Assembly (NCBI GenBank): GCA_964553245.1
Contig: CAZKJM010000001.1
Coordinates: 447,555-511,554 of the forward strand
DNA length: 64,000 nt
Direction of reading: 5' to 3'
From: an uncultured Gammaproteobacteria bacterium
GTDB lineage: Bacteria; Patescibacteriota; Microgenomatia; Levybacterales; UBA12049
Under the pieces are notes generated by a model. The model worked only from the letters and a program-made list of their open reading frames with translations, was not told where the DNA came from and did no database searches. The translations under genes and the position numbers were made by a program. Below are positions 1,953-18,412 of this stretch, in pieces. How positions within the stretch are numbered: the first letter of the stretch is position 1; every line of letters begins with the position of its first letter.

Positions 1953-3877
1953 AGATTAGTTGGCGTGGTTGGGTTTCCTGTCTGTATTGGTTGTTGATCA
2001 GGAGTTATTTCCGGATTTAATTGTTGGGGAGTTTTGGCAAGCGGTGCTTCATCCGTTGGTTTTTCGCTTGATTCCGTTTCTGCCTGTTTTTGCATTTTTT
2101 CAAGCTCTTGAGGATTAGATGTAATTAGCGTGTGCTCAAAAGGAGCAGCAATTACTTTTATAGCAACGTGACTTTGTCCTGCAAAAAATAATCCTTCACC
2201 GATGTCTGCGGAAAGCAACAACTCCTTTTCTCCTTGAGAAAGATAAAATATTTGAGCAATATGGTCAATTTCGGTAGTGCTTTGCTTTAAAAGCACTTGA
2301 ATTGATGAATTGGATAAAACAGCTTTCCCGTAGTCTGTTGATAAAAAGTCCTGAACATCCTGCGTTGCTGTGGTAAGCGCAAGATAATATTTTCTTGATC
2401 TTTTGGCTATTCCATAAACAAACGAAGCTGAATCCTGATATTTCATTATGTACCAAGCTTCATCTAAGATAAGCAATCTCTTTTTAAGATTCTTTTTAAC
2501 TTTTGTCCAAACAAAGTCCAAAATTATATGCATTGCAACCGGTCTTAATTCTTCCTCCAGGGTTTTAATATTAAATACGGTAAAAGGATTCTTTATGTCA
2601 AAGTTAGATTGTTGATTAAATATGCCATTTAAGCTTCCTTTAATGAATTTTTCAAGTCTTAAGGCAAGTTCTCTTGCGGCAGGATCTTCCATTCCCAAAA
2701 GTACTTTGTATAAGTCCTCCATAAGTGGAGGTTGTTTTTTTTGAGTTGAAGGATCTGCGGTAATTCCTTTTTGTCTGTATGTTTCTACCAGAGCTCTATC
2801 AAGTATCGCGTCGTGGGCAGGATCAAGATTGCCCATAATTATTCTTAGCAAGCCGTGAAGAGATAATATTTTTAAGCCGAGTTCGTTTTCCCCTTCTTCG
2901 TAAAGACCAGAAAGATCAAAAGGATTAATTTTTACCGGCTCAGACGGAGTAAAAGAAACATGCTCCCCTCCTAATGTTTTTGTCAGCGCTTCGTATTCTC
3001 CTTCCGGATCAATAATTATTACTTCTGTGCCAAACATAAATTGTCGCATCGCTTCAAGCTTAATAAGATATGATTTTCCGGAACCTGATTTACCAAAAAC
3101 TACTTCATTTGCATTTTCCAGTGTGTATCGATCAAAAATAACTAGTGAACCGTTTTGTTCGTTGATGCCATACATTACTCCGCGATCCTGCGTTAAAGTA
3201 GCAGAGGTAAACGGAAAGGTAGAAGCAAGAGAAGTTGTGTCCATGTTTCTGGTTATGAATAATCTGTCTTGACCAATTGGAATTGTTGACTTAAACCCGT
3301 CTTCCATCTGAAGGGTAGCGGTTTTAGTAATCATCATAATGGAATTAAGTATTGAGTTTAGTCTTTTTGATGCTTCGCTAAGATCATCAAGATTATCCGA
3401 AGATAAAGTTATATACAAACTGAACTGGAAAAATCTTTCAACTCCTTTTGCAAGTTGCTCTTGTATTTCCAGTGCGTCATCAAGTGCTGCTCTTACTTTT
3501 GGATCAACAACTTTTCCCTCCTCGATTTCGGAGGAAATAGTCGCTTCCATTTCGGCAATTTTTCTTCTTAAATCTGCCAGAACATCGGAGGCAGAGGTTG
3601 GGTAAATAAACATTGATACATTCATTGAATGGTCAAAGTCAATTAAAGGCTGTAGCCAGTTTGGAGAAACATAACGTGGGTATCCTACTACAAAAAACGT
3701 ACGATAGTATAAATCTCCAACGCGGATATATTTAAAATCTACTTCAACCGATGGGGGAGCAATTACATCAACTAAAGAAACCATTCCTTTTTCAAGCTTT
3801 TTAATACCGGGACCTTTTGTGTTTTGCTGAACAGGGATTATTGGTTGTTGTTTTGTTTTCTTGCCAAATATTTTCAT
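1949..3877 (-). CDS. virB4: Type IV secretion ATPase, VirB4/TrbE/TraC family
   Basis: Walker A (VVFGKSGSGKSYLIKL) and the family-typical Walker B (LLILDEAWYIMK) are present. Length is 642 aa. Pilin and VirB6-like genes lie upstream in the same orientation. Confidence 0.85.
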   Translation of the reverse strand: MKIFGKKTKQQPIIPVQQNTKGPGIKKLEKGMVSLVDVIAPPSVEVDFKYIRVGDLYYRTFFVVGYPRYVSPNWLQPLIDFDHSMNVSMFIYPTSASDVLADLRRKIAEMEATISSEIEEGKVVDPKVRAALDDALEIQEQLAKGVERFFQFSLYITLSSDNLDDLSEASKRLNSILNSIMMITKTATLQMEDGFKSTIPIGQDRLFITRNMDTTSLASTFPFTSATLTQDRGVMYGINEQNGSLVIFDRYTLENANEVVFGKSGSGKSYLIKLEAMRQFMFGTEVIIIDPEGEYEALTKTLGGEHVSFTPSEPVKINPFDLSGLYEEGENELGLKILSLHGLLRIIMGNLDPAHDAILDRALVETYRQKGITADPSTQKKQPPLMEDLYKVLLGMEDPAARELALRLEKFIKGSLNGIFNQQSNFDIKNPFTVFNIKTLEEELRPVAMHIILDFVWTKVKKNLKKRLLILDEAWYIMKYQDSASFVYGIAKRSRKYYLALTTATQDVQDFLSTDYGKAVLSNSSIQVLLKQSTTEIDHIAQIFYLSQGEKELLLSADIGEGLFFAGQSHVAIKVIAAPFEHTLITSNPQELEKMQKQAETESSEKPTDEAPLAKTPQQLNPEITPDQQPIQTGNPTTPTNL

Positions 3878-4542
3878 TTTTCTTCCTTTCTTACAATAGC
3901 TGTTTTTATATTTTCGGTTATCTGGTTTGTTTCGATATGGGCATCGTTATAAAGCTCGTAATAAAGTTTAACCAATTCCTCTTTTTCTAGCGTTTTTGCT
4001 CCAAGGCTAAGCCTTGCGAGTTGAGCGTGAATCGTATCAAGCTTTGTATGCAAAGATGCTTTTGCCTCTTCGATAAAAGAGTTTTTCCCCGACTGTTTTT
4101 TTACCGTTGCATTTGCAGCTACGGTTGCAGCTCCTTTTTCAAGATACGAATAGGGTATGCAGATATAAAAATTTTTGTCCAGCACGATATTTACTTTAAC
4201 CAATTCCTGCACAAAATCTCTATACAATTTAATTTGACTTGCTAGCATTTCGTTTTGGGTATTTTTGGCTTCGTTGTCTAATAGTTTTAAGTATGAGCTA
4301 ATATCTAGCTTTTTACTCCTAATAATAATTTCTATTGGAAAAGAAAGTGAGTTTAGAAGCGACGCGTAGGAATATATTTTTGTATTTTGCTCTTCAAGCG
4401 ATAAAAGCGCAAAATTTGTCGCTCTAACTTCAATAATAGAACAGGCACTATTTCCGGACAGAAGAACAATATCGTCAATAATATCAATAATTTCCGTAAA
4501 TTTTTGAGTTGTTGAGTGTATTTTTTGGGCAGAATCTTTCAT
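3874..4542 (-). CDS. Hypothetical soluble protein within the T4SS-like operon
   Basis: 222-aa ORF with a 4-nt overlap to virB4 and 3 nt from the upstream gene. No TM segment or recognisable motif. Confidence 0.5.
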   Translation of the reverse strand: MKDSAQKIHSTTQKFTEIIDIIDDIVLLSGNSACSIIEVRATNFALLSLEEQNTKIYSYASLLNSLSFPIEIIIRSKKLDISSYLKLLDNEAKNTQNEMLASQIKLYRDFVQELVKVNIVLDKNFYICIPYSYLEKGAATVAANATVKKQSGKNSFIEEAKASLHTKLDTIHAQLARLSLGAKTLEKEELVKLYYELYNDAHIETNQITENIKTAIVRKEEK

Positions 4543-4545
4543 ATA

Positions 4546-5811
4546 TTAATTACCGAATAAACTTTTTCTTAATTCTTCTCGCTCATCAATAGAAATTACT
4601 TCAATCGGCAAGATTATTTCTCCGGTTGCCTGAAATTCAACAGAATCGAATCTATGTTTTTTTTCCGGATCCTCAAAGTCAATGGTGTATATGCCGTTGG
4701 ACAAAGGAGTTGCTGATGCAAATTGCCCAAGCGGGTTAGTCTTAAAAGCCCGGACTGGGTTTCCTTCCTCGTCTTTTACCTCAACTAAAATATTCGGTAG
4801 AGGATTGTTTCTTGAGTCTTTTATAATACCTGTTAAAACATTTGGAAAATCAGTAGAAATAGGAAGTCCTACGCTTTTGCCCATTTCTTTTGGAATGCTT
4901 CTAACATGTTTAGTTTGTTTTATTTGCGGCTCAGGGATCGCCATGCTTGGGGTGTAAACTTTTTTATTTTGTACCTCAAGTTTTTTTTGAAGTTCCAATA
5001 ATTGATTTTCTAATTGTTGTTTTTGAAGCATAGTTTCATTTAAGATCTTTTCAAGTTCAGTTACTTTTTGGTGCGCTGCCTCATACTCTTTGGATCCTGT
5101 TTTCTCCGAAACTTCTTTTTGCTTTGCTTCCTCAAGTTGTTTTTGAAGAATTACAGCTTCTTTCTGAAGCTCTTCTTCTTTTTCTTCCGGTTCTTCTTTA
5201 GCTTCTTTGGTTGGCATATCAACCGGTTTTGGTGGTTCCACTACAGTTTTTAAATTGTTTTTGCCAAAAATTGCAGCAAATGGATTAGGAAGAGAAAAAG
5301 AGCTGTCATCTTGCAGGGTCTTGGCTTGAATTATTGGGTTAGAAATATTATTCAAGGTTTGCAAAAATGATATTTCTTTTTCGTCCAATTTATTTTTAGG
5401 AGTTTTTGGTAGCGAGGATAAAAATGACTTGAGCTTTTCTTCCGAAATTGCGGGTTGAACAGGAGAGTGAGCCATTATTGCGCCTTGTTTTAATGTCCCA
5501 AACTCGGGAAAATAAAGATCTGCTCCGTTTTTTTGATAAACAAATTGAGTTGGGTTAAAAAGTGCCTTTGAAAAATTGCCAATCATTACATCCAATGGTC
5601 TTCCCTCTATTGGCAAAAAAGCAAAGCTTGCTCCGATTCCGGCTACTACAAGCGCAATCGGAAGTTTTATCAAAAGCAAAAACGGCATAGCAGTAATAAT
5701 CCAACCTAAAATTACGCCTGTTGCAAGATATGCAAACTGTTTGACAGTCATATTGCCGATTAGTTTAAACTGAAAGCCTGTTATATCTTGAGGAATAGGG
5801 TGATTTTCCAT
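4546..5811 (-). CDS. T4SS-associated membrane protein. The N-terminal two-TM module (VirB3/PrgI-like?) is followed by a long coiled coil (EEKEEELQKEAVILQKQLEEAKQ…) and a C-terminal beta-sandwich-like domain.
   Basis: The N-terminus (TGFQFKLIGNMTVKQFAYLATGVILGWIITAMPF…) carries two predicted TM helices and is placed immediately upstream of virB4, as VirB3/PrgI is. Coiled-coil heptads are visible. The C-terminal region (PNILVEVKDEEGNPVRAFKTNPLGQFASATPLSNGIYTIDFE) resembles a carboxypeptidase-regulatory-like/Ig-like fold. Confidence 0.45.
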   Translation of the reverse strand: MENHPIPQDITGFQFKLIGNMTVKQFAYLATGVILGWIITAMPFLLLIKLPIALVVAGIGASFAFLPIEGRPLDVMIGNFSKALFNPTQFVYQKNGADLYFPEFGTLKQGAIMAHSPVQPAISEEKLKSFLSSLPKTPKNKLDEKEISFLQTLNNISNPIIQAKTLQDDSSFSLPNPFAAIFGKNNLKTVVEPPKPVDMPTKEAKEEPEEKEEELQKEAVILQKQLEEAKQKEVSEKTGSKEYEAAHQKVTELEKILNETMLQKQQLENQLLELQKKLEVQNKKVYTPSMAIPEPQIKQTKHVRSIPKEMGKSVGLPISTDFPNVLTGIIKDSRNNPLPNILVEVKDEEGNPVRAFKTNPLGQFASATPLSNGIYTIDFEDPEKKHRFDSVEFQATGEIILPIEVISIDEREELRKSLFGN

Positions 5812-5958: not shown

Positions 5959-6342
5959 TTAGGAACAGTTATTAAACCCAAAATAATTAATACATTCGGC
6001 TCCTGTTATATAGGCGATAATTTTTATTATTAAAAAAGATAAAAAGATTACCAATAAGCCGATAATTGCATAGGTTAAAGTTTTTTTTGCTTGATCAATT
6101 TTCTTTTGATCTCCGCCTGATGTTATAAAGCTGATTCCGGATAAAATAACAAAAATTAAGGCAACACTTCCCGATAAAATCAAGAGCCAATTAACAACTT
6201 GACCAAATACAACCGGAAGGCATTGAAGAGTTGCAACTCCGTCTACCATACAGTTTGACCAAGAAGCTCCGCCTGAAGTTCCTCCTGTGGAGCCGGTTCC
6301 AGGATCAGCTTTGGCGATAAGGTTAATAAAAGTTGCCAACAT
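5959..6342 (-). CDS. VirB2/TrbC-like T4SS pilin, paralogue 1
   Basis: 127 aa with two hydrophobic helices separated by the short polar loop TSGGDQKKIDQAKKTLTYA, shared with the neighbouring paralogues. It has Cys pairs near the N-terminal (SNCMVDGVATLQC) and C-terminal (AECINYFGFNNC) ends. Confidence 0.6.
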   Translation of the reverse strand: MLATFINLIAKADPGTGSTGGTSGGASWSNCMVDGVATLQCLPVVFGQVVNWLLILSGSVALIFVILSGISFITSGGDQKKIDQAKKTLTYAIIGLLVIFLSFLIIKIIAYITGAECINYFGFNNCS

Positions 6343-6386
6343 AAAGATAGATTAACAAAAGAAATATTAATTTACAATACGCTTTG

Positions 6387-6779
6387 TTATAAAGTCGGGA
6401 GTTCTAGATTATTGATGCTTGGGAGACCAAATACACTTAGTATAATGCTTATTATTAAGTAAGAAAGAAATACTACGATTAATCCAATAATAGCAGCTAC
6501 TATATGACTTCTTGCTGCTTCTACTTTTCCTTTATCTCCACCGGATGTGACCCATCTGATACCACCATATATTAAGTATCCAAGAGCAGCAACAATTGCT
6601 AATATAAATGCGGTATTAATTATTACACCGATTATTTTTCCAAAATCTCCAGCTTTAAGCTCGCATAGAGTTTGAGATATTCCTCCACCTTCGCAAAGAT
6701 TAATGGTCTCTGCAAACGCAAATGGAGCCAGTGTTAAATAGGTTGCTGCTGAGGTAATAATTCCTACAGTTTTTTTCAT
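6387..6779 (-). CDS. VirB2/TrbC-like T4SS pilin, paralogue 2
   Basis: Signal-peptide-like N-terminus (MKKTVGIITSAATYLTLAPFAFA), then TM1, loop (TSGGDKGKVEAARSH) and TM2. This is the classic VirB2 topology. Confidence 0.65.
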   Translation of the reverse strand: MKKTVGIITSAATYLTLAPFAFAETINLCEGGGISQTLCELKAGDFGKIIGVIINTAFILAIVAALGYLIYGGIRWVTSGGDKGKVEAARSHIVAAIIGLIVVFLSYLIISIILSVFGLPSINNLELPTL

Positions 6780-6824
6780 TTATAATTTAATGCTAGTATT
6801 AAATTCCTGTCTTGTCAAGTACTT

Positions 6825-7139
6825 TTATATAAAATTATTAATTCCGAATAGTCCTCCGATAATATTTACAATTAAATACGCTAATAAAACAACTACCAAC
6901 CCGGCTACGGCATAAAATAATTTTTTTCTTGCTGCTTGCAATTTTTGTTTATCGCCCTCTGATGTCATCCACTGAAATCCTCCGTAGATTAAAAAGCCTA
7001 AAGCCAGAATAATAGCAACTATATATAATATATTTACTCCGACACCGATAATTTTTTCAAGAGTACCTGCTCCACCGGTTGGAATTCCTTGTGGTCCTGT
7101 AATCTCTTGTCCTGCAATATTTAAAACGATCTCCTTCAT
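6825..7139 (-). CDS. VirB2/TrbC-like T4SS pilin, paralogue 3
   Basis: 104 aa with TM1, loop MTSEGDKQKLQAARKKL and TM2, the same motif as paralogues 1 and 2. Only 3 nt separate it from the upstream gene. Confidence 0.6.
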   Translation of the reverse strand: MKEIVLNIAGQEITGPQGIPTGGAGTLEKIIGVGVNILYIVAIILALGFLIYGGFQWMTSEGDKQKLQAARKKLFYAVAGLVVVLLAYLIVNIIGGLFGINNFI

Positions 7140-7142
7140 AAA

Positions 7143-8336
7143 TCAGCTGAATCCGGGTATTTTTAAAATATCAACACCAATTACCTGAAGTATAACAAGG
7201 GAAAAGATTATAAACAATAATCCAACAATAGCTGCTGTTAAAGACTCTTTTGCTCCCTGCATTTTTTCCGGGTTTCCTCTTGCCAAAATAATTTTGTAAC
7301 CAGATAGAATGATTAAGATTAATGCAATTCCCCCGGAAAGACTTAAAAGGACACCGAATAAAGATTTAATAAAAGACGCTGCATCTGTTCCTAATGTTAT
7401 TCCAAGCCCAGTATCTATGGATAAACATTTTCCGCCATCTCCCAACTCTGAACAATGCGCAGTAATCGGAGGAAGATTATCAAAAAGGTTATCAATAAAT
7501 ACTTTCCCCTCATTGCTTTCTTCTCCTAAAACATTTAGAACGATCCAGTCTTTATTATTGCCTTCAAAAACATATATAGTTTGATCTCCAATTGCCTTAT
7601 CTGGAACCTTAAGTTCTATTTTACATTCAGGCTCATCTAGACATTGCCTTAAATTGTCCGATCCGCCCTGGAACCTGTATTTATAAGTCCCGCTTTTGTT
7701 GTTATGGATTGTCAATGTAACTGTCTCTCCAGGATTTGCTTTTGAAGGATCGATTGACAACGTGAATGGAGCATTATGTTCTTGATCTAAATAAAAAGTT
7801 CTATAGGTCTCGACATGTTCTTTTTGTTTATTGGTTGCATAAAGTCTATAGACAGCGCCTCCTGTTCCAAAAATATCAAATTTTTCCACTTTAAATTGCG
7901 CTTTAATTTTCCAATTTTTCCCCCCATCATTACTAAAACAAGATTGTTGAACAAATGATGATCCTTGATGAGATAGGTCGCATGTTGAAGACTTTCTGTT
8001 AATTTTATACTCCAATTTCCATTCATGTTTTGAAGATTTAAAAACATTACTGGTTGATTCATTCTCTACCAAAATTAAGAGTTGATATTCTTCATCTGGT
8101 TTTGGCGCTGGTAATTGTCCCCCTCTTGAGTAATAAAGTGTTGTTTGAGTTTGAGCAGTGCTTACTTCTCCCCAAATAGCATCAGAAATATCTAGTTCAA
8201 CGTTTATAATGTCACCGTTTTTTACATTAGTTTTATCAATCGTTAGCGCAACTCCGCTTGCATGAACAGGGTTTTTAAAAAACAGGAAAAAAATTAAGAT
8301 TAAGATTGAAAATAGAATTCTTTTCAGGACAGGCAT
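7143..8336 (-). CDS. Pilin-fusion protein. After a signal peptide, a ~300-aa extracellular domain is fused to a C-terminal VirB2-like pilin module.
   Basis: The N-terminal signal is MPVLKRILFSILILIFFLFFKNPVHA. The Cys-containing extracellular region is beta-rich. The C-terminal 70 aa (…ILSGYKIILARGNPEKMQGAKESLTAAIVGLLFIIFSLVILQ…) repeat the TM-loop-TM motif of the three small pilins. Confidence 0.55.
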   Translation of the reverse strand: MPVLKRILFSILILIFFLFFKNPVHASGVALTIDKTNVKNGDIINVELDISDAIWGEVSTAQTQTTLYYSRGGQLPAPKPDEEYQLLILVENESTSNVFKSSKHEWKLEYKINRKSSTCDLSHQGSSFVQQSCFSNDGGKNWKIKAQFKVEKFDIFGTGGAVYRLYATNKQKEHVETYRTFYLDQEHNAPFTLSIDPSKANPGETVTLTIHNNKSGTYKYRFQGGSDNLRQCLDEPECKIELKVPDKAIGDQTIYVFEGNNKDWIVLNVLGEESNEGKVFIDNLFDNLPPITAHCSELGDGGKCLSIDTGLGITLGTDAASFIKSLFGVLLSLSGGIALILIILSGYKIILARGNPEKMQGAKESLTAAIVGLLFIIFSLVILQVIGVDILKIPGFS

Positions 8337-8374
8337 AATTAAATCGTAATTTAAAAAGTCTGTAAAAGCAAGTT

Positions 8375-9793
8375 TTAAGAAGTAAATTTAAGTCCCCGGC
8401 CTTTTACTGTTTGAAGATGCTTTGGATTATTTGGGTCATCTTCGATTTTTTTTCTGACCCGAAAAATAAGTTGATCCAAAGCCTGATCAGTTACTCCCGC
8501 TGTTGTTTGAGTATCCTTCCAAACAGCAGAAATTATTTCGTTTCTTTCTAAAATTTTTTCATGACTATCGATTAAAAATTTTAATAATCTAAATTCAAGA
8601 GTAGTGAGAGCATCGGATAAAACAATCTCACCTTTTTTAACTTGGTTTGTATTTTGATCGTAAATTATTTTATCCGAGGCGATTTTTATAAGCGCATTAT
8701 TTTTATCAAGAAACATTTCGAGTAGAGGAATTGAAATTTTCCCATTTTTTATTAAACCTATTTTTTCAAGTAGGTTAAGCTGTTCAAGATTAATCTTTTT
8801 AGCCATAGACTTTTGCTCAAACGGCGTTAAAAAACTCCAGATCTCAAAAAGACAGGCTTTAATTTGTTTTCTTTCTATTAAAAAATCAGCAATATTTTCT
8901 TTTGGAAAATCAGAGCTTGTTACAATTTCTGTAGCAAGTCTCGTAAGCTTACTGTGTCCTCCGGTAAGGCTAATTAATTTTTCAATTAATTCTTTTTTAA
9001 TTTTTTTACCCGAGACCTTTTCCAAATACGAAATTCTAAAATCCAGCCCGATTTTGTCTTTAATATTTAAATAGACAATTTTATCAGCAATAAATTCGTA
9101 AAACTGGTTTAATATTTCGGTAATTAAGGTTTCTTCAAGCGGTCTTGTCAGTGAAAATATTGAGGCAAAACGGTATTTAGCTTTATTTCTTAAAATTCTA
9201 AGATTTGCAAAAAACTCGCTTGAAATAACCGGGATGTACTCATCGAAACGATCAAATAAAAAAATAATCGACAATTTTTTTTCGATAGACAAGCAATCAA
9301 AAGCTTCTTTTAAACCCTGAAAAAGAACAAGTTCGTCGTTTAAGCTAAGATGTTCCTTAAAAATACGGTGAATTTCCCTATGTTCATTGATTAACTCTCT
9401 GTCTCTTAATGAATCGGCAAGAGACAAAAAAATATATTTATTTACGTCAAAAAGCGATCGGTTTTTAACCTCGGAAAAATTCATATAAACAAAATGAACA
9501 TTTTTTTGATTTTCTCCCAAATGCTTAACGCGGATTTTGTGATTATAGGCAAGCATCCTTAACAGATTTGATTTACCTGATCCAGGAAGACCAATTAATT
9601 GGCAGGAATTTCCCTCTTTTAGAAAATCTAAAATTTTCTGTATTTCTTCAAAACGGGAATCCTCAGGATAAAGGGATTCAAAATGAGTAAAACCATTATT
9701 GTTTGATTGTTTCATTGCAACACTATGGTAATTGTAAGTTTTTTGTAAGGAAAATATCAAGTTTAATAAGTTCTTAAGGATTAAAATCGCCAT
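8375..9793 (-). CDS. Transcriptional regulator with an N-terminal P-loop NTPase (AAA/STAND-like) fused to a C-terminal OmpR/PhoB-type winged helix
   Basis: Walker A is LIGLPGSGKSNLLRML. The C-terminus matches the trans_reg_C pattern (LTTLEFRLLKFLIDSHEKILERNEIISAVW…ALDQLIFRVRKKI…LQTVKGRGLKF). The annotated start at 9793 lies 4 bp from the divergent ORF start at 9797, so the internal Met at 9715 is a possible alternative start. Confidence 0.65.
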   Translation of the reverse strand: MAILILKNLLNLIFSLQKTYNYHSVAMKQSNNNGFTHFESLYPEDSRFEEIQKILDFLKEGNSCQLIGLPGSGKSNLLRMLAYNHKIRVKHLGENQKNVHFVYMNFSEVKNRSLFDVNKYIFLSLADSLRDRELINEHREIHRIFKEHLSLNDELVLFQGLKEAFDCLSIEKKLSIIFLFDRFDEYIPVISSEFFANLRILRNKAKYRFASIFSLTRPLEETLITEILNQFYEFIADKIVYLNIKDKIGLDFRISYLEKVSGKKIKKELIEKLISLTGGHSKLTRLATEIVTSSDFPKENIADFLIERKQIKACLFEIWSFLTPFEQKSMAKKINLEQLNLLEKIGLIKNGKISIPLLEMFLDKNNALIKIASDKIIYDQNTNQVKKGEIVLSDALTTLEFRLLKFLIDSHEKILERNEIISAVWKDTQTTAGVTDQALDQLIFRVRKKIEDDPNNPKHLQTVKGRGLKFTS

Positions 9794-9796
9794 AAT

Positions 9797-12499
9797 ATGA
9801 CAAAAGAATTTGAATTCCAGAAATTGACAAGCGAAGTTAATTTTTCTACACTCAAAGGTAGAAAGGTTATTTTTATGGAGAACTCAGAAACACCAAGGCC
9901 ACCTGAAGATAAGGGAATGGGTAAGAATGTGTTAGGCGGAGAAAATCCTGCTTCTTCAGAAGCTTCTGGAGTTAACGAAACAAGTGAACAAAGAGGAGAA
10001 GAGCTTCAAAGAAATCTTGCAAGGCTTGGTATAGGAAGCGAAGAGTTTGGAGATATTTCAGAAGAAGAGAGGTTGATGGCTCAAAGAGCACAACAAGAGT
10101 TTATAAGACAAGCAAGGGAGGGTCTTAGAGACAACATTTCCCCGCAGGAAAAACTAAAAAAAGAAGAAGAAAAAATCCTTAGCTTAGGATCAAGAGAAGA
10201 TCTTGATAAATTTTTAGTTTCAAAAGACAAGAATCTTTTGTTTTATCTTCTAGACGCAAAAAGATTAATAGAGAAAGGCGATTTTGCAATAGAAGACGAA
10301 AGAGCAAAGGAAAACTTTTTAAACGAATTAAATGAACTCATTGCGATGTCAAAAGGGGACAAATCAATAGTGGACGTCGATGATTATAAAAGAAGGGTTT
10401 CTGAAATTATTCATGGCAAAACTGATGCGGCTGGTAAAGAAAGCCTCGGCTTAATAGATTTATGTAAAAAACGCGAGCCCAGAGAAATGCACGGCGAAAT
10501 GCCTAAATGCCTTGAAGATCTTGCCGAATTAATCATGAGCTCGGAGGAAGATAAGTGGAGAAAAGACGGAGAAAGAGCGCTTATTAACGAAGAGGGAAGT
10601 GTAAATACGGAAAATTTATTAGCTTGGTTCAGGGACAGAATTATGTGGTTTCATGATTTTAATCCTGATTCGGAGATAAATTTGTTTAATCAAATCTCCG
10701 TGCCAACGCTGTACAGAACCTACTCATTTTCGGAAATGCTTGATAACAAAAGATATTTCTTAAAAAGAACAAAAAGGTTAGGAGAAGGAGAGTACGAACA
10801 TCATAGAAGCGAAGAATATGAAAAATTAAAAGACCATTTGCTTTACGAAGTTTGGTTGTTTAACACCTCGCATAATTATGACGTAAAATACCGCACTGTT
10901 ATGGGAATTGAATCTAAGGTTCCGGAGGTTTTAACAGAAATGTATTACACTAACGTTTTTACTAAGGATAGGAATAGACTTCTCAAGATTTTAAAGCTTC
11001 CTAAAATTGATCAGATAGAAGTAGGAAAGATTGTTAAGTCTAAAAATGGCGAGCAAGAAGGACAGGGAACAGTTGGAAGAGTCGTCAGAAGAGCTCTTCT
11101 TGCCTATTATTATCTTCCGGAGTTGGTTGCAGAAGATGATCAATTAGTAAATGGTGGGAATATGTTTGAAAAGTCACTCGGAGAAAATGGCTCGCTTGAA
11201 TTTTACGCTTCCCTTGTAAAACAGCTTGGTGGAGAAGTCCTAGACACAGGATCAATGGGTTTTAGAGACGCCAGAAATATTTTAAGAGAAAGAATAGCTG
11301 ATTTACTAGATAAAAAATATGGTCATAAATTTACCCAGCTAAATATTTTTGATGACGTAAATAAAGATAGAACGGTACTGCGTCTTATAAGAACTGCCTT
11401 AAGGGATGCGATTGCAAAGGTGGAAGGATTAGCAGATAAAAAAGGAAATCCGGACGAAAACGTTATCTATGGAGAGAACTGGGCAAATACAATGATTTAC
11501 TGGACAGGAATTTCTGCAAAAAACGATACTAATGCAATTGGTTTTGACGCGTGGACAAAAATAATGAGCGCAAAAGATTATAGAGTAAGACAAGCAGGAG
11601 CAAGAGGAATTTTTGGAGAAATGTACAATATTTATGGTTTAACAAGAATCGGATTAAATTTTTGGGAAGGAATTAAAGTAAGAAGAGAAGGAGACAGGGG
11701 TTTTAACTGCAATGTTTTGGAGGTTTTACAGGGTGGTCAAGGAAACGATATTAATCTTGATCGCGGAATAAGCGATTTTGATTTTCAGGATAATGCTCAA
11801 AGACAATTTGCGGCAAATCATATAAGAAATGCTTTTAGTTTTTTTGAATTTGTAATGAAAAAACACGGAATGAATTTTGACCAATTTTTATCTGTTGACG
11901 TATTCGGGAGAATAATTTTTGATCCAGGGAAAGCAGACGAAGTGTTTGATAAATTATGGAGCAAAGGACTTCGTTATACTTTTGATTTGCCGGATTTTTT
12001 TTGGGATCATGAGGTACGTGGTTGGTGGAGAGATAAAGATAAGGATGGTGAGGAGTGCGTATATTTTGGCTCAAAAAAACTAAGGGATTTAATGTTTAAC
12101 GAAGAACTAAATAATATGGGAATGTACGACAGAGAAAGATTTAAAGATCAAAAGAGTAAATTAGCAGCTCGCAATGTTTTTGCATACCTTATTGCTAAAG
12201 AATTATATGCGCATAGAGCATTTGATTCCAGATATAAAAGATACAGCGCAGAACAAATAATGGTAATAGAATCATATTTAAGAGGATACCCATTAGAAAT
12301 TGAAGAAACAGAAGGACACGAGGTTAAAATAAAAGATTACTTTTTCTCAAAAGAGGAATGGGAGCATGTTACAAAAATTTCTCATACACAATATAGTAAG
12401 ATGTTTATGGAAAATCTTGCGTTAACTGGAACCCAAGGAGCAATAGGCGGAGCCTTTTCAGGCATAAAACATTTTATTAAGGAACTAGTAAAATTCTAA
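9797..12499 (+). CDS. Hypothetical 900-aa soluble protein with no recognisable domain, embedded in the T4SS-like locus
   Basis: Long uninterrupted ORF with good coding character, no TM segments, an acidic/charged N-terminal ~250 aa and a Trp/Phe/Tyr-rich core. It is divergent from the regulator gene and convergent with the VirB6-like gene, overlapping it by 4 nt. The start may be a downstream Met (M26 or M41). Confidence 0.6.
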   Translation: MTKEFEFQKLTSEVNFSTLKGRKVIFMENSETPRPPEDKGMGKNVLGGENPASSEASGVNETSEQRGEELQRNLARLGIGSEEFGDISEEERLMAQRAQQEFIRQAREGLRDNISPQEKLKKEEEKILSLGSREDLDKFLVSKDKNLLFYLLDAKRLIEKGDFAIEDERAKENFLNELNELIAMSKGDKSIVDVDDYKRRVSEIIHGKTDAAGKESLGLIDLCKKREPREMHGEMPKCLEDLAELIMSSEEDKWRKDGERALINEEGSVNTENLLAWFRDRIMWFHDFNPDSEINLFNQISVPTLYRTYSFSEMLDNKRYFLKRTKRLGEGEYEHHRSEEYEKLKDHLLYEVWLFNTSHNYDVKYRTVMGIESKVPEVLTEMYYTNVFTKDRNRLLKILKLPKIDQIEVGKIVKSKNGEQEGQGTVGRVVRRALLAYYYLPELVAEDDQLVNGGNMFEKSLGENGSLEFYASLVKQLGGEVLDTGSMGFRDARNILRERIADLLDKKYGHKFTQLNIFDDVNKDRTVLRLIRTALRDAIAKVEGLADKKGNPDENVIYGENWANTMIYWTGISAKNDTNAIGFDAWTKIMSAKDYRVRQAGARGIFGEMYNIYGLTRIGLNFWEGIKVRREGDRGFNCNVLEVLQGGQGNDINLDRGISDFDFQDNAQRQFAANHIRNAFSFFEFVMKKHGMNFDQFLSVDVFGRIIFDPGKADEVFDKLWSKGLRYTFDLPDFFWDHEVRGWWRDKDKDGEECVYFGSKKLRDLMFNEELNNMGMYDRERFKDQKSKLAARNVFAYLIAKELYAHRAFDSRYKRYSAEQIMVIESYLRGYPLEIEETEGHEVKIKDYFFSKEEWEHVTKISHTQYSKMFMENLALTGTQGAIGGAFSGIKHFIKELVKF

Positions 12500-14196
12500 G
12501 ATTGTTTCCCCCAAGCCTTTTCTCCCCCAAGCCATTGTTTAGTGCCATCGGCCAATCGTTGTGCGATCTTAGAATTTTTATGGTTATCGGCATATTTTTG
12601 CGTAAGTCTAATAGGTAAGCTCCTAATAGGACCCGCTCCTCTAGTATAATCAGCAGGTCTTGTCAGTTGTTTCCAGCCGTAACCAGTTGGTTTTCCCAGC
12701 GTTGATGTTCCAACATGGAAGGCTTGACCGATTGGAGCCATCTCAAACTTTGGAGCCTTAAGCATTTTCTCTACCATAGTTGCAACATTCGGAGTTAATA
12801 AAATTATCCCCAGTCCTACAACTGCAGCTAATTGATCTGCATTTCCAACGTTACCTACCAACGGTGGGGTAAAAAAAGTATTTGCGCCGGTTGATTGAAT
12901 TGCATCTATAAAAACTTTTCCGAGCAAAAGCATGGCTACTACAGTAGGAAAAACAATTAACTTAGAGCCTATGCTTCTTAACCAGGAACCAAAACCGCGT
13001 TCGCTTCCCATAAACGGAATTATTCCTATAACAATAAATAAAGGGGACAGTACTATGTCTATGAGTATCCCAACATAAGTGAGCAAAAGCTTAAACCATA
13101 ACCTAAACATAGCAAAAGTTATAGCAACGGCAATAATTAAGAATGCAATTAGTTGACCAAGTCCTGCTAAAACCTTTTCTGCAAATCCAGCAGCAGTTAC
13201 AGCCCCTGCAATTCCACCGATAATACTACCGATAATTGGTATAGCAGATCCAGCAGCTACTCCTGCAGCAACAGACCCAGCCATCATAAGCATACCAAGT
13301 ATTCCTTGAAGTATTTTACCTGGACCAGTTTCGAGCATTGATTGTATAAATGTTCCTATGGCACCCGCAGCTTGCCATGACATACTAACGAAGTTTACAT
13401 TTTTATCGAAATAAATTGGAGCTTGATAATTTACTTGGTTTGCTATTTCAAGTTTAATTTGGGGATCAGCATTTGCAAACAAGTTTATTATTAAATATGT
13501 CGCAACCCACATTAAGTCTATTAGGAATCCGGCAATTGCAAACGAAAAAGTTACTAAAATGATTCCGATAATCATTTTAGGAATTTGATTTTGAATAGTC
13601 ATTACGGTACGCGGATCAATTTTTACACGTAACATTATTGCAAGTCCAACAAGAATAAAAACAAGCACAAAAACTATATAAATCATATTTCTAAAAGCAG
13701 CCCACGCGTTCATTAGTGGATTTAATTGTTGAAAACCGGTTGTTTGTGCAAGCGCTGGTTTTGCAATCCCAAAATTCTGAGCTAGATAATTTACATATTC
13801 AAAACTATGCGCAGGAATATTAAAAGTCATTGTAATCAAATTGTTTAAAACACCGATTACTCCTCCTCCGCCAATTTGTCCGGGTTCTGCAGCGGGTACG
13901 AATCCGATTTTTCCGGTTTTTGGATCTACGCCCAAGCATTGATGATTTTGACTGATTGGGTCATATCCGGTTAACTGACAAGCAACAGTTGCCATTAATT
14001 CTATAAACACATTTTGAGTATAGGTGTGCAGGTTTTGGGGAACATCGGGATTATTTACGGGAGCGGTGTAGCTATTCTGAGCAAAGGAAGATTTACTTAA
14101 GTTAAATAAGAAAATCAGTACAAGAAAAAAAACGGTTATTAACCGGGCAGCGAATCTCATTAATATTAGTTTGAAGTATTTTAATTGGTGTGTCAA
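12496..14196 (-). CDS. Polytopic membrane protein, VirB6/TrbL-like T4SS inner-membrane component
   Basis: A signal-like N-terminus (MRFAARLITVFFLVLIFLFNLSKSSFA, alternative start 14160) precedes a ~130-aa extracytoplasmic region. This is followed by at least six hydrophobic helices with Gly/Ala-rich stretches, as in TrbL/VirB6. Genomic context is the VirB4/pilin locus. Confidence 0.5.
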   Translation of the reverse strand: MTHQLKYFKLILMRFAARLITVFFLVLIFLFNLSKSSFAQNSYTAPVNNPDVPQNLHTYTQNVFIELMATVACQLTGYDPISQNHQCLGVDPKTGKIGFVPAAEPGQIGGGGVIGVLNNLITMTFNIPAHSFEYVNYLAQNFGIAKPALAQTTGFQQLNPLMNAWAAFRNMIYIVFVLVFILVGLAIMLRVKIDPRTVMTIQNQIPKMIIGIILVTFSFAIAGFLIDLMWVATYLIINLFANADPQIKLEIANQVNYQAPIYFDKNVNFVSMSWQAAGAIGTFIQSMLETGPGKILQGILGMLMMAGSVAAGVAAGSAIPIIGSIIGGIAGAVTAAGFAEKVLAGLGQLIAFLIIAVAITFAMFRLWFKLLLTYVGILIDIVLSPLFIVIGIIPFMGSERGFGSWLRSIGSKLIVFPTVVAMLLLGKVFIDAIQSTGANTFFTPPLVGNVGNADQLAAVVGLGIILLTPNVATMVEKMLKAPKFEMAPIGQAFHVGTSTLGKPTGYGWKQLTRPADYTRGAGPIRSLPIRLTQKYADNHKNSKIAQRLADGTKQWLGGEKAWGKQS

Positions 14197-14228: not shown

Positions 14229-14315
14229 GGAGGGATCGCATAGAGGCCTAGTGCGTTCGCTTGGAGAGCGGATGTCGTCGTGAGATGACCGGGAGTTCGA
14301 ATCTCCCTCCCTCCG
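14229..14315 (+). tRNA. tRNA-Ser(GGA), type II with long variable arm
   Basis: Acceptor GGAGGGA/TCCCTCC, 3-bp D-stem, anticodon stem TTCGC/GCGGA with loop TTGGAGA, an 18-nt variable arm and T-arm GGGAG-TTCGAAT-CTCCC. The track ORF at 14102-14374 is an artefact over it. Confidence 0.8.
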
Positions 14316-14390
14316 CCTTCACCCGCCGAAGCCAGAATGGCGAAGGCGGGCTTCGATCGGGTTTCAGCGGACACAGTCCGCCATAATGAG

Positions 14391-14819
14391 TTATGAGTTA
14401 TGAGTTATGAGTTGTTTTGCTTCCTCCCAAACCTTTTTATCTGATTTGTAAGTTAATTTTTTTTCCACTTTTTCCACAGAAAGCCATTCAACGCTTTCCA
14501 TTTCTTTATCTTTTAAGCTTAAATCCTCAGTTAAATATTCCATTAAAAAATAATAAACGGTTTTCTTGATTTTTTGTTTTTCAAAAACATACCAATACTC
14601 AACCGGATTTAATGATTTTAGAATTTTGGCGTTAATACCTGTTTCTTCCAAAACTTCTCTTATTGCTGTGTCTTCTTTTTTTTCTTTTTCAATCTTATCT
14701 CCGATTAATCCCTTTGGAAAAACCCAGCCGTGATGTTGTGAATGCTGGCACACTAGAATTAAAAGTTTATTTTTTTCTTTTTTAAAGACTATGCCACCGG
14801 CAGAAAATTCAAATTTCAT
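14391..14819 (-). CDS. NUDIX hydrolase
   Basis: Nudix box GX5EX7REVLEETGI present (…KGLIGDKIEKEKKEDTAIREVLEETGINAKI). Overlaps the upstream GIY-YIG gene by 4 nt (ATGA). Confidence 0.7.
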   Translation of the reverse strand: MKFEFSAGGIVFKKEKNKLLILVCQHSQHHGWVFPKGLIGDKIEKEKKEDTAIREVLEETGINAKILKSLNPVEYWYVFEKQKIKKTVYYFLMEYLTEDLSLKDKEMESVEWLSVEKVEKKLTYKSDKKVWEEAKQLITHNS

Positions 14820-15058
14820 AATGGAAATAAATGTTTTTTTAAGAAAGCCCTTCCAGAACCAGATTTAAGGTATTTCTCAAAATTAAAAGCGGTATATTTA
14901 TCTATGAACGCAAAATAAGAGATCAGTCTTATTGGACGTAGTAATTTAGTTGCAGGTACATGTCCTTTTTTATGCCTTTCTATTCTTTCTTCCAAATTGC
15001 TTGTACAACCCGTATATGGTTTGCCGTTTTTACATTTTAAAAAATATACAAAAAACAT
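14816..15058 (-). CDS. Small stand-alone GIY-YIG domain protein (~80 aa)
   Basis: The GIY-YIG-like motif is MFFVYFLKCKNGKPYTGCTSNLEERIERHKKG. The track ORF (14816-15259) is over-extended across two tRNA genes. The real start is probably the Met at 15058, with AAGGAG 9 nt upstream. Confidence 0.6.
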   Translation of the reverse strand: MFFVYFLKCKNGKPYTGCTSNLEERIERHKKGHVPATKLLRPIRLISYFAFIDKYTAFNFEKYLKSGSGRAFLKKHLFPL

Positions 15059-15122
15059 ACTAATTTCTCCTTCGCGAACTACTAAGCGGATGTTATCCGC
15101 CGTAGCTCGCTTCGGCGAGCGA

Positions 15123-15212
15123 TGGCGGAGGAGAGAGGATTCGAACCTCTGTGAGCCGTAAAGCCCGCTCGGTTTTCGAGACCGGCCAAATAAACCACTC
15201 TTGCACTCCTCC
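15123..15212 (-). tRNA. tRNA-Ser(CGA), type II
   Basis: Reverse complement gives acceptor GGAGGAG/CTCCTCC, 3-bp D-stem CAA/TTG, anticodon loop CTCGAAA (one C·A mismatch at the stem top), a long variable arm, T-arm AGAGG-TTCGAAT-CCTCT and an encoded CCA. Confidence 0.65.
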
Positions 15213-15217
15213 ATAAG

Positions 15218-15290
15218 CGCTCTTGGGGAGAATCGAACTCCCAGCCTAAGCGTCCGCAACGCTTCGCTCTATCCGTTGAGCTACAAGAGC
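15218..15290 (-). tRNA. tRNA-Arg(GCG)
   Basis: Reverse complement GCTCTTG-TA-GCTC-AACGGATA-GAGC-G-AAGCG-TTGCGGA-CGCTT-AGGCT-GGGAG-TTCGATT-CTCCC-CAAGAGC-G. Every stem pairs perfectly and the anticodon is GCG. Confidence 0.75.
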
Positions 15291-15297
15291 CCGTTAC

Positions 15298-15346
15298 CGC
15301 TTCGCTCTATCCGTTGACCCCGATTAAATCGGGGTTGAACTACAGG
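15298..15346 (-). repeat. Truncated 5' copy of tRNA-Arg (5' acceptor strand, D-arm and 5' anticodon stem) interrupted by a 17-nt hairpin, upstream of the intact tRNA-Arg
   Basis: The 19-nt stretch gcttcgctctatccgttga occurs at 15261-15279 and again at 15299-15317. The second copy is followed by ccccgattaaatcgggg flanked by a ttga duplication, then actacagg, which is the D-stem region. It ends exactly at the anticodon stem/loop boundary. Confidence 0.55.
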
Positions 15347-15361
15347 CACAGATTAGCAAGT

Positions 15362-15375
15362 AGTATATAGCAAAT
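15362..15375 (-). promoter_or_regulatory. Putative extended -10 promoter (TGCTATATACT on the - strand) for the tRNA-Arg / tRNA-Ser(CGA) transcript
   Basis: The 14-mer agtatatagcaaat also occurs at 16266-16279, upstream of the other minus-strand tRNA pair. It resembles the TGCTATACT element upstream of three other genes. Confidence 0.4.
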
Positions 15376-15424
15376 AATAAATAGCTACACTGTGATTTTA
15401 CTTTAAAGTTGAATTTGAAGCAAA

Positions 15425-15997
15425 TTAATGGGAATTTTCCAAGGGAAAATTTTTAGAAAGCCAGTCGCCTGATTTTTCCATAAAAGTCGGCTTTATATAT
15501 TCCCTAAACGGGAGATAAGGCAAAAGTACTCTTTTTATGTGTTCTCTGTCAATGTTTCTTAATGTTAAGGTTAATTCCCCGGGGATAAATGCTTTTGTTC
15601 GTATGTGCAATACGTCTACGCCGTTTATCTTTTTAAAATAAAAATCATATAATTCTTGCCATAGGAAAAAATGATCCTCAACTTTTATTCCCTCAGTGCT
15701 TATTCTATAATGGAAATCCTGGGGGGGAACACTTGATAGCGCAAAGCTTACAAAGACCAAAGACAAAATTACCAGCATTAGTAAATATTGAGAAAAAAGA
15801 AAAAGAATAATCTCTACAAAAAACATAATCAAAAGCGCAGTTAAATAATATTGTTTTGTTCTTTTTTTAAATGGTCTGCCGGGAGAACTCCATGATAAAA
15901 GAGTTTTTACTTCCGTGGGGGGATAATTAAAGCTTGAATAAGGATGTTGTTCTTTAATTTCATTTGATTTAGGATTTTCCTTTATTTGTTTTTCCAT
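15425..15997 (-). CDS. Hypothetical membrane protein (190 aa, two TM helices)
   Basis: ORF of good length between tRNA genes with central hydrophobic helices (LTALLIMFFVEIILFLFSQYLLMLVILSLVFVSFAL). Confidence 0.45.
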   Translation of the reverse strand: MEKQIKENPKSNEIKEQHPYSSFNYPPTEVKTLLSWSSPGRPFKKRTKQYYLTALLIMFFVEIILFLFSQYLLMLVILSLVFVSFALSSVPPQDFHYRISTEGIKVEDHFFLWQELYDFYFKKINGVDVLHIRTKAFIPGELTLTLRNIDREHIKRVLLPYLPFREYIKPTFMEKSGDWLSKNFPLENSH

Positions 15998-16062
15998 AGA
16001 GCAGTATATTTTTAATCTACCCTAATCAGAAGTATTAGTCAATAAATATTGATTTTCAATTT

Positions 16063-16152
16063 TGGCGGAGAGGGTGGGATTCGAACCCACGTTCACCAAT
16101 TGGCGAAAGCGGTTTTCAAGACCGCCGCACTAGGCCTCTATGCGACCTCTCC
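16063..16152 (-). tRNA. tRNA-Ser(TGA), type II
   Basis: Reverse complement gives GGAGAGG…, D-stem GCA/TGC, anticodon stem GCGGT/ACCGC with loop CTTGAAA, a long variable arm, T-arm and an encoded CCA. Confidence 0.8.
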
Positions 16153-16157
16153 TAGGG

Positions 16158-16247
16158 CGGAGGAGGTGAGATTCGAACTCACGCGAGCTTATTCAGCTCA
16201 GGGGGTTAGCAACCCCCCGCAATGGACCGTGCTATGCGACTCCTCCT
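16158..16247 (-). tRNA. tRNA-Ser(GCT), type II
   Basis: Reverse complement gives GGAGGAG-TC-GCA…, anticodon stem GGGGG/CCCCC with loop TTGCTAA, a long variable arm and T-arm GTGAG-TTCGAAT-CTCAC. The track ORF 16049-16267 is an artefact over the two tRNAs. Confidence 0.8.
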
Positions 16248-18038: not shown

Positions 18039-18046
18039 GTGAAGAG

Positions 18047-18412
18047 TGGAGATGTCGAGCTATGAACTCGAGTCCAAGAAATTCGTTAAAAAACATCTAC
18101 AAGCTTATTCGATTTTTTAAATTTCGCTTTATTCTTATCCAATCGAAAGGAAAAAATAAAGTTAAGATTAAATAAATTCTATAAGGACCTAATCAACTTC
18201 CTTATTATTTCCCAAACTGTGTTTATGCCTAGATAATCCCGTTTAGGAAAAGATTAAATAGACAGTCTTTTAGTTATATGCGTATAAAGGCATATATGCC
18301 AATTGACTTCTAGAATTACTTCTAGCATTTATTTTTTGACTAGTTTAAAGACATTTAGTCGTTGTCTGCTTGCAGTTTTTAAAGTGCTTTCCTGTCGATG
18401 CAATGCATCCCC
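18047..18412 (-). ncRNA. ssrA: tmRNA (ssrA), ~366 nt
   Basis: The - strand 5' end is GGGGATGCATTGCATCGACAGG, matching the conserved GGGGNUG…UCGACNGG. The 3' end is T-arm TCGAG-TTCATAG-CTCGA followed directly by CATCTCC-A. That acceptor pairs with the 5' GGGGATG, including the G3·U wobble. It lies immediately downstream of smpB. The tag-peptide frame was not resolved by eye. Confidence 0.7.

Follow-up and report, generated by a model that had tools for sequence, protein, structure and literature searches.

A STAND-like protein with an OmpR-type DNA-binding domain as a candidate regulator at a type IV secretion system-like locus of Levybacteria

Within the 64,000-nucleotide stretch of contig CAZKJM010000001.1 that was analyzed here (the window), a gene for a putative transcription regulator, REG, lies next to the pilin genes of a locus resembling a type IV secretion system (T4SS). 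On its other side follows the divergently oriented gene of a 900-aa protein, and a conserved array of phased 7-bp repeats is found between the two start codons. The window is a chromosome segment of low GC content (about 32-38%) with tRNAs and tmRNA. The open reading frame (ORF) that an earlier note on this DNA had flagged (8375-9793, minus strand, 472 aa) was confirmed to be real and contains the Walker A peptide quoted there. Translation almost certainly starts at the ATG at position 9715, which is M27 of the 472-aa ORF, because all homologues begin at the equivalent codon, including a 100% identical protein of 446 aa, and none of them has the extension. Moreover, a conserved REG promoter with both its -35 and -10 elements lies downstream of the ATG at 9793, inside the extension, and in one related locus (L001) a 523-bp cassette sits 5 nt upstream of the ATG at 9715, with flanks that are otherwise identical to the window. 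The extension 9716-9793 is probably untranslated. The gene and its parts are as follows.

8375-9715, minus strand: regulator gene (REG), 446 aa, ATG at 9715, stop codon at 8375-8377
9716-9793, minus strand: 26-codon 5' extension of the mechanically called ORF, which houses the promoter and the operator-like array
8681-9688, minus strand: STAND/Orc-Cdc6-like nucleotide-binding oligomerization module (P-loop nucleotide-binding, helical and winged-helix domains), residues about 10-345
8378-8677, minus strand: OmpR/PhoB-type winged-helix DNA-binding domain (Pfam match 8387-8608)
9569-9592, minus strand: Walker A GLPGSGKS of the window copy (K48, S49)
9239-9268, minus strand: Walker B IIFLFD followed by RFDE, a NACHT-like D-x-h-D-E pattern (in the alignment, D155 is invariant and R156 nearly so)

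The C-terminus of the protein is a genuine OmpR/PhoB winged helix. Trans_reg_C (PF00486) matched residues 396-469 of the 472-aa ORF with 63.5 bits (Pfam cut-off 26.2; E=1.9e-17), and the profile of the domain matched the chains of PhoB, RegX3, WalR, KdpE, ToxR and CadC. The OmpR fold is present, with an N-terminal beta sheet, a three-helix core containing the recognition helix and a C-terminal hairpin wing, and the recognition helix is nearly invariant in an alignment of orthologues from the genomes whose repeat arrays are described below. An AlphaFold2 model built from 35 orthologues was confident (pLDDT 88.3, pTM 0.82). The N-terminal part has the layout of a STAND nucleotide-binding oligomerization domain (NOD), in which a nucleotide-binding domain is followed by a helical and a winged-helix domain. 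Its matches to P-loop and STAND families in Pfam were weak: NPHP3_N was barely over the threshold (25.1 versus 24.8), and nSTAND3 (21.8 versus 27.2), NACHT (18.7 versus 26.7) and AAA_16 (17.3 versus 32.6) were under it. Walker A, Walker B, a sensor-1-like Arg, a GxP-like LTGGHxxLTR motif and a winged-helix signature were recognized in the alignment, and the Cdc6/ORC models did not place the protein among the Orc1/Cdc6 initiators. The fusion of a P-loop NTPase to an OmpR-type winged helix that the earlier note had described is thus confirmed by the Pfam match and the STAND-like module. The same holds for the claim that a receiver domain is missing: Pfam gave no Response_reg match at E<=0.1, the N-terminus being a P-loop fold, and the response-regulator models of NCBIfam aligned only by their C-terminal 100 positions, with scores far under the cut-offs.

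No C-terminal STAND repeat sensor (TPR, WD40, LRR or SUPR) is present, since the approximately 100 aa after the NOD are the OmpR domain, and the REG protein contains no hydrophobic segments. Regarding the SARP/AfsR family, no BTAD domain was matched in Pfam at E<=0.1, and the DNA-binding domain is C-terminal. The C-terminus is also not the GerE/LuxR-type helix-turn-helix of MalT/LAL regulators, as it is occupied by Trans_reg_C. Membership in a known defence system was rejected after a PADLOC search, in which the best match (mad8, E=2.3e-4, 18.8 bits) covered the P-loop only. Public annotations label the protein merely as 'helix-turn-helix domain-containing'.

The window copy shows the STAND P-loop pattern (Walker A GxxxxGK[ST], Walker B hhhhD) and is likely to bind nucleotide. 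Of the best 120 orthologues, 102 have Arg, 15 Lys and 1 Gln at the Walker A Lys position; for the 82 locus-encoded copies the corresponding numbers are 75, 5 and 2. This position thus keeps a positive charge while losing the catalytic lysine. In about ten of the 82 locus-encoded copies, N, S or E stands in place of the Walker B Asp. The copies that bear Lys, including that of the window, cluster near the base of a neighbor-joining tree rooted on remote relatives, which keep GxxGxGKS and D-E. With Arg in place of the Walker A Lys in approximately 85% of the orthologues, the family as a whole probably does not need ATP hydrolysis for its function, whereas nucleotide binding may matter. A nucleotide switch, as had been proposed, is plausible for the window copy (GSGKS, FLFDRFDEY).

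A word-indexed search returned >1000 full-length homologues of REG; the best 120 were 52-86% identical and all came from Patescibacteria sources. The closest relatives of the window are likewise all Patescibacteria, mostly labelled Levybacteria or Levyibacteriota. Many GTDB records with orthologous loci are titled 'uncultured Gammaproteobacteria', and their content is clearly that of Patescibacteria. The orthologues are confined to Levybacteria, members of the candidate phyla radiation (CPR). When the N-terminal module was compared with 1.84 billion cluster representatives, 589 matches were found at E<=1e-3, of which 42 reached E<=1e-30. Nearly all were 430-470 aa long, and all ten distant matches tested carried Trans_reg_C at the C-terminus.

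We compared the neighborhoods of 87 fetched orthologous loci with that of the window. Pilin genes adjoin REG in 79 loci, which are all those with sufficient flanking sequence; in the other eight the flank is too short. The recurring order is NUDIX, a 560-aa membrane protein, a protein of approximately 900 aa on the opposite strand, REG and four to five T4SS_pilin genes, continuing after the pilins with PrgI, TraC-like, VirB4-like ATPase, dnaN and dnaA. A small 23S_rRNA_IVP gene is sometimes found between the 900-aa gene and REG. Across non-identical loci, VirB4 is 64-85% identical. REG is directed towards the pilin genes in 53 of the 79 loci, which is the arrangement of the window (type A). 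Only REG is inverted in the remaining 26, where it runs in the same direction as the 900-aa gene and divergently to the pilins (type B). Type B is also the arrangement of L087 and L088, the two deepest orthologues that were checked, whose N-terminal modules show 32% and 37% identity; both lie in the same locus. For relatives below about 30% identity, the neighbors are TCAD9 or Pepco proteins, and T4SS genes were not seen nearby; the contig of one remote relative was too short to show its context. The T4SS-linked clade is distinct from this older, differently partnered family. The proposed link between REG and the T4SS-like locus is therefore well supported, and it is not undone by homologues outside a T4SS context, as these are remote relatives only. 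Its placement at the head of the pilin operon, however, is correct for the window and the other type A loci but is not a conserved trait.

The divergent region 9715-9797 had been suggested as a place to look for binding sites, and a phased direct repeat that is conserved across genomes was indeed found there. Its elements and the gene on its far side are listed below.

9732-9749, minus strand: candidate operator CTTACAA-aaaa-CTTACAA, an exact 7-bp direct repeat with 11-bp start-to-start spacing
9753-9762, minus strand: conserved box ACTTGATATT, which contains the REG -35 (TTGATA, 9755-9760)
9731-9736, minus strand: REG -10 TACAAT, with the ATG 15 nt downstream
9782-9787, plus strand: -10-like TAAAAT of the 900-aa promoter, 9 nt before the ATG, without a recognizable -35
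9797-12499, plus strand: 900-aa gene, fast-evolving, no known family or fold, predicted direct target

The array consists of nTTAyAA units followed by 4 nt, and this 7+4 geometry is that of the pho box. PhoB binds 7+4-bp direct repeats, and OmpR/PhoB domains take tandem repeats one helical turn apart. The second CTTACAA unit overlaps the -10 of the REG promoter. This promoter, TTGATA-18 nt-TACAAT, was the best promoter-like match (10/12) and is conserved in type A loci, in which the ATG follows 0-15 nt after the REG -10. Read on the plus strand, the box is AATATCAAG and occupies the -35 position of the promoter of the 900-aa gene. The conserved element as a whole comprises (G/A)CTTGATATT and then, in most orthologous loci, 2-4 phased units; its C/T and G positions are conserved, which goes beyond mere A/T richness, and many loci carry 3-4 units, more than a bare promoter needs. 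A promoter and terminator scan of the window alone gave 15 promoter-like sites versus 17.1 in shuffled sequences and was thus not above expectation, so that it is the conservation across genomes that gives the promoter calls their weight.

In the AT-rich window, the array alone is weak (8 matches at <=2 mismatches versus 5.7 expected). In 1.46 Mb, two TTAYAA units at 11 bp (>=11/12) occurred 210 times, compared with 114-138 times in shuffles. The whole excess (80 hits) was located at the junction of REG and the 900-aa gene, and the 130 hits elsewhere correspond to the chance level. The array was the sole enriched site in the 1.46 Mb, and nothing above chance was found elsewhere within 10 kb on either side. 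The best array scored >=11/12 in 45 of the 71 loci with a long divergent ORF, its first unit being located 37 or 46-49 nt from the ATG of that ORF. The position of the array is fixed relative to the 900-aa gene and not to REG. When a 23S_rRNA_IVP (IVP) cassette is inserted between array and REG, the array is still found beside the start of the 900-aa gene, and the same is true of type B loci, in which it abuts the REG stop codon. In the deep orthologue L088, the 900-aa homologue is preceded by a TACAAT, and GTTGTAA-ggtt-GTTGTAA is located 22 nt upstream of this hexamer.

On the side of the 900-aa gene, 31 aligned loci share the order repeats, AATATCAAG (or AATATAAAG), 19-21 nt, a -10-like hexamer (TAAAAT, TAAACT or TACACT), 7-9 nt and ATG, and no -35 element was recognizable across them. 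Because the array keeps a fixed distance from the ATG of the 900-aa gene in both orientations of REG, this gene (and, in the window, REG's own promoter) would be the best-supported direct target. The 900-aa gene had been taken for an orphan. Strictly speaking it is not one, as nearly all loci have a homologue of 620-1600 aa at this position; 10 homologues were recovered besides an identical database copy. The 900-aa protein diverges much faster than REG and the T4SS core: identity is 27-39%, compared with 59-86% for the regulators of related genomes and with the 64-85% of VirB4, and its N-terminal quarter is disordered and variable. Rapid divergence together with a variable N-terminus is a pattern seen in surface, effector or conflict-related proteins. 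The idea that the 900-aa protein is a divergent TCAD9 partner was rejected (hhalign probability 3.8%). Beside the 900-aa gene, in nearly all loci, lies a gene whose product has about 9 hydrophobic segments and matches no family (in the window 566 aa, 12496-14196, minus strand). It could be a divergent VirB6-like channel subunit. Such a subunit was found to be scarce in Microgenomatia in a survey of Patescibacteria T4SS (PMC12102498).

On the other side of REG, the T4SS-like locus of the window comprises the following features.

8343-8371, minus strand: pilin operon promoter TTGCTT-17-TACGAT, separate and conserved, with the ATG 6 nt after the -10
5959-8336, minus strand: four T4SS_pilin (PF18895) genes, downstream of REG
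1949-5811, minus strand: PrgI/VirB3-like, TraC-like and VirB4-like ATPase genes of the T4SS-like locus

In type A loci, the pilin promoter begins within 0-10 nt of the REG stop codon. Both arrangements share its conserved form aCTTGCA...TTTTGnn(c/t)TAC(G/T)AT, with GTG or ATG close by. A position weight matrix (PWM) of two array units scored a median of -1.1 and a maximum of 8.1 bits at this promoter, and >=14 bits at 41% of the junctions. No other shared repeat was seen by eye at the pilin promoter in either arrangement. An operator of the array type at this place was rejected, as no copy above chance was found there. The search of 8337-8374 thus revealed a separate conserved promoter and no array. 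Since the array is absent here, REG is linked to pilin expression by synteny only. The view of REG as a dedicated T4SS regulator is accordingly supported in part, strongly for the locus (79 of 79), while direct control of the pilin genes is conjectural. In the window, no terminator-like site was detected in the 38-nt gap between REG and the first pilin gene, so that read-through into the pilins is possible.

The first 'pilin' gene (7143-8336, minus strand) encodes 397 aa, of which only the last 65 or so match T4SS_pilin; its long N-terminal part is unannotated and varies from 247 to 597 aa between genomes. In other genomes this gene often begins with GTG. The start codons of REG, the first pilin and the 900-aa gene are located 6-15 nt after the respective -10s with no evident Shine-Dalgarno sequence (8336-8348, 9715-9736), the leader of REG being very short. 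This pattern suggests that leaderless or near-leaderless mRNAs occur in the lineage.

Several insertions were observed in the orthologous loci. The cassette of L001 (L001:483-1005, 523 bp) is inserted at the window equivalent of 9718-9720 and carries a 121-aa 23S_rRNA_IVP/bAvd-like gene between short tandem repeats of about 8 bp. Similar IVP genes were found in L003, L005, L010, L011, L014, L016, L017, L019, L028, L032, L034, L037, L040, L047, L051 and L087; their cassettes occupy the same spot with differing repeat units (ctagttgc, aagtcgta and others). The cassette looks like a small mobile or selfish element, and a tblastn search found no copy of its gene within the 64-kb window. In one genome (L003:11333-12219, L004:1629-2515), a DUF6922 and AbiEii pair resembling a toxin-antitoxin system lies between REG and the first pilin gene. 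In the window, a tRNA cluster (four tRNA-Ser, one tRNA-Arg) among small ORFs and a tmRNA gene are found at 14229-16246 and 18044-18412, within 10 kb of the T4SS-like locus.

Considering these results, we lean towards the view that REG is a cytoplasmic one-component regulator that self-associates through its STAND module and places its winged helices on the heptad array, with the promoters of REG and the 900-aa gene as targets. The STAND-like module would drive self-association, and two or more C-terminal winged helices would be set head to tail on the 11-bp-phased heptads (nTTAyAA and 4 A-rich bases). In the window, repression of REG would be expected upon occupancy, because the array overlaps the spacer and the -10 of its promoter; such autorepression would also mean less read-through into the pilins. 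On the other strand, where about 32 nt separate the array from the downstream -10 of the 900-aa gene, a bound OmpR-family protein could recruit RNA polymerase and thereby activate transcription. Several observations speak against this view. REG has no sensor domain for a signal, and the Arg or Gln at the Walker A position of most orthologues, together with the loss of the Walker B Asp in about ten, weakens a switch driven by hydrolysis. The pilin promoter has no array. About a third of the loci score only 9-10/12 for their best two units. Finally, the second unit also serves as a -10 hexamer and the box as a -35, so that part of the conservation of the array in type A loci reflects promoter function, and for the 900-aa gene the array is an A/T-rich sequence at about -45 to -70 that could act like an UP element.

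These last points lead to a rather improbable alternative, in which the array serves solely as promoter architecture (tandem -10-like hexamers for REG, an UP-like element for the 900-aa gene) and the protein binds another site. It agrees with the fit of the box and the last unit to the -35/-10 consensus with an 18-nt spacer, with the A/T-rich units and with the lack of significance of a single 7-bp repeat in the AT-rich window. It does not account for the 2-4 phased units that persist in type B loci and in L088, where they are not the promoter of REG, nor for units extending beyond the -10, and both the conserved C/T and G positions and the 11-bp phasing with a 4-nt A-rich spacer, which is the known geometry of OmpR/PhoB sites, argue against it. 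We give slightly more credit, while still considering it unlikely, to REG working at the pilin promoter, where it would chiefly activate or repress the operon of four pilin genes together with the T4SS genes that follow. Pilin adjacency is invariant, whether co-directional or divergent with back-to-back promoters, and read-through across the 38-nt gap would provide a further connection. Yet the pilin promoter is sigma-70-like, conserved and so close to the REG stop codon in type A loci that no intergenic room is left upstream, and neither the PWM scores nor inspection by eye indicated a site there. Least probable of all, to the point of being very unlikely, is that REG is a conflict or defence STAND sensor or a non-transcriptional DNA-handling AAA+ protein (Orc/Cdc6-, MuB- or TnsC-like) that loads onto DNA for the relaxase-less T4SS. 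The protein has no meaningful PADLOC match, the canonical GKS/DE motifs kept by the conflict-type relatives have been lost from the T4SS-linked clade, and an OmpR domain with promoter-embedded repeats fits transcription control; furthermore, the gene is found at a single conserved locus close to dnaA, in a core region of the chromosome and not in a variable island.

Among Patescibacteria, T4SS-like genes and arrays of pilins are widespread; they lie near dnaA and the replication origin and were reported to be essential for epibiotic growth in a Saccharimonadia strain (PMC12102498). The same survey mentions no regulator (PMC12102498), and the architecture of REG is described neither there nor in the papers on NTP-dependent conflict systems and on STAND phylogeny. 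It is a tentative, at present doubtful, proposal that REG is the first identified regulator of a Patescibacteria T4SS-like system: a sensor-less, hydrolysis-independent oligomerization switch, gated by nucleotide or a partner and in most species with an Arg-type P-loop, that would control through a pho-box-like array a 900-aa protein as possible substrate, effector or cytoplasmic component. If this is true, the regulated 900-aa protein may serve a T4SS-like system used for host interaction. For Levybacteria, a conserved DNA-binding protein now has a predicted operator and target, which gives a testable handle on the control of the locus. The family is also a case of a STAND module without a sensor and, mostly, without the Walker A lysine, and bears on the simplification of STAND switches. 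Its reach is limited by its confinement to one uncultured lineage.

REG resembles several known systems in part. Orc1/Cdc6 proteins are replication initiators; neither to them nor to the archaeal PF01637-type Walker ATPases (PABY2304, 2qen; SSO1545, 2fna) does REG belong at the sequence level, and it adds an OmpR domain. With PhoB/OmpR regulators and ToxR/CadC it shares the DNA-binding fold, and its candidate site has the 7+4-bp tandem geometry of the pho box, but it has neither the receiver of the former nor the transmembrane/periplasmic sensor of the latter. The remote nSTAND1/AAA_16 and Trans_reg_C relatives have the same two-module layout and about the same length (440-470 aa; E 1e-21 to 1e-11) and reach nSTAND1 at 45.4 bits; they differ from the REG clade in having the canonical GxxGxGKS and D-E, TCAD9 or Pepco partners and no T4SS genes nearby. 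Transcription regulators known among STAND proteins are MalT, GutR and AfsR (STAND phylogeny paper). Like REG, MalT has an N-terminal NOD and a C-terminal DNA-binding domain, but the latter is of the LuxR type and MalT binds maltotriose through a large SUPR sensor, whereas REG is of the OmpR type and sensor-less. AfsR and the large SARPs of Streptomyces combine an OmpR-type domain with a STAND module and act on repeats with an 11-bp period over the core promoter. In SARP/AfsR sites, direct repeats spaced by 11 or 22 bp extend over the -35 and the spacer, and AfsR becomes active upon binding ATP (PMC10936776). AfsR has an N-terminal DNA-binding domain, BTAD and a TPR sensor in about 1000 aa, in contrast to the C-terminal domain of the 446-aa REG, which has neither BTAD nor TPR. 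AfsR belongs to an antibiotic cluster of Actinobacteria and REG to a T4SS-like locus of CPR bacteria, mostly with Arg at the Walker A Lys. While a member of neither the SARP nor the MalT family, REG would, by analogy, work most like AfsR and the SARPs, with which it shares the OmpR domain and the 11-bp repeats.
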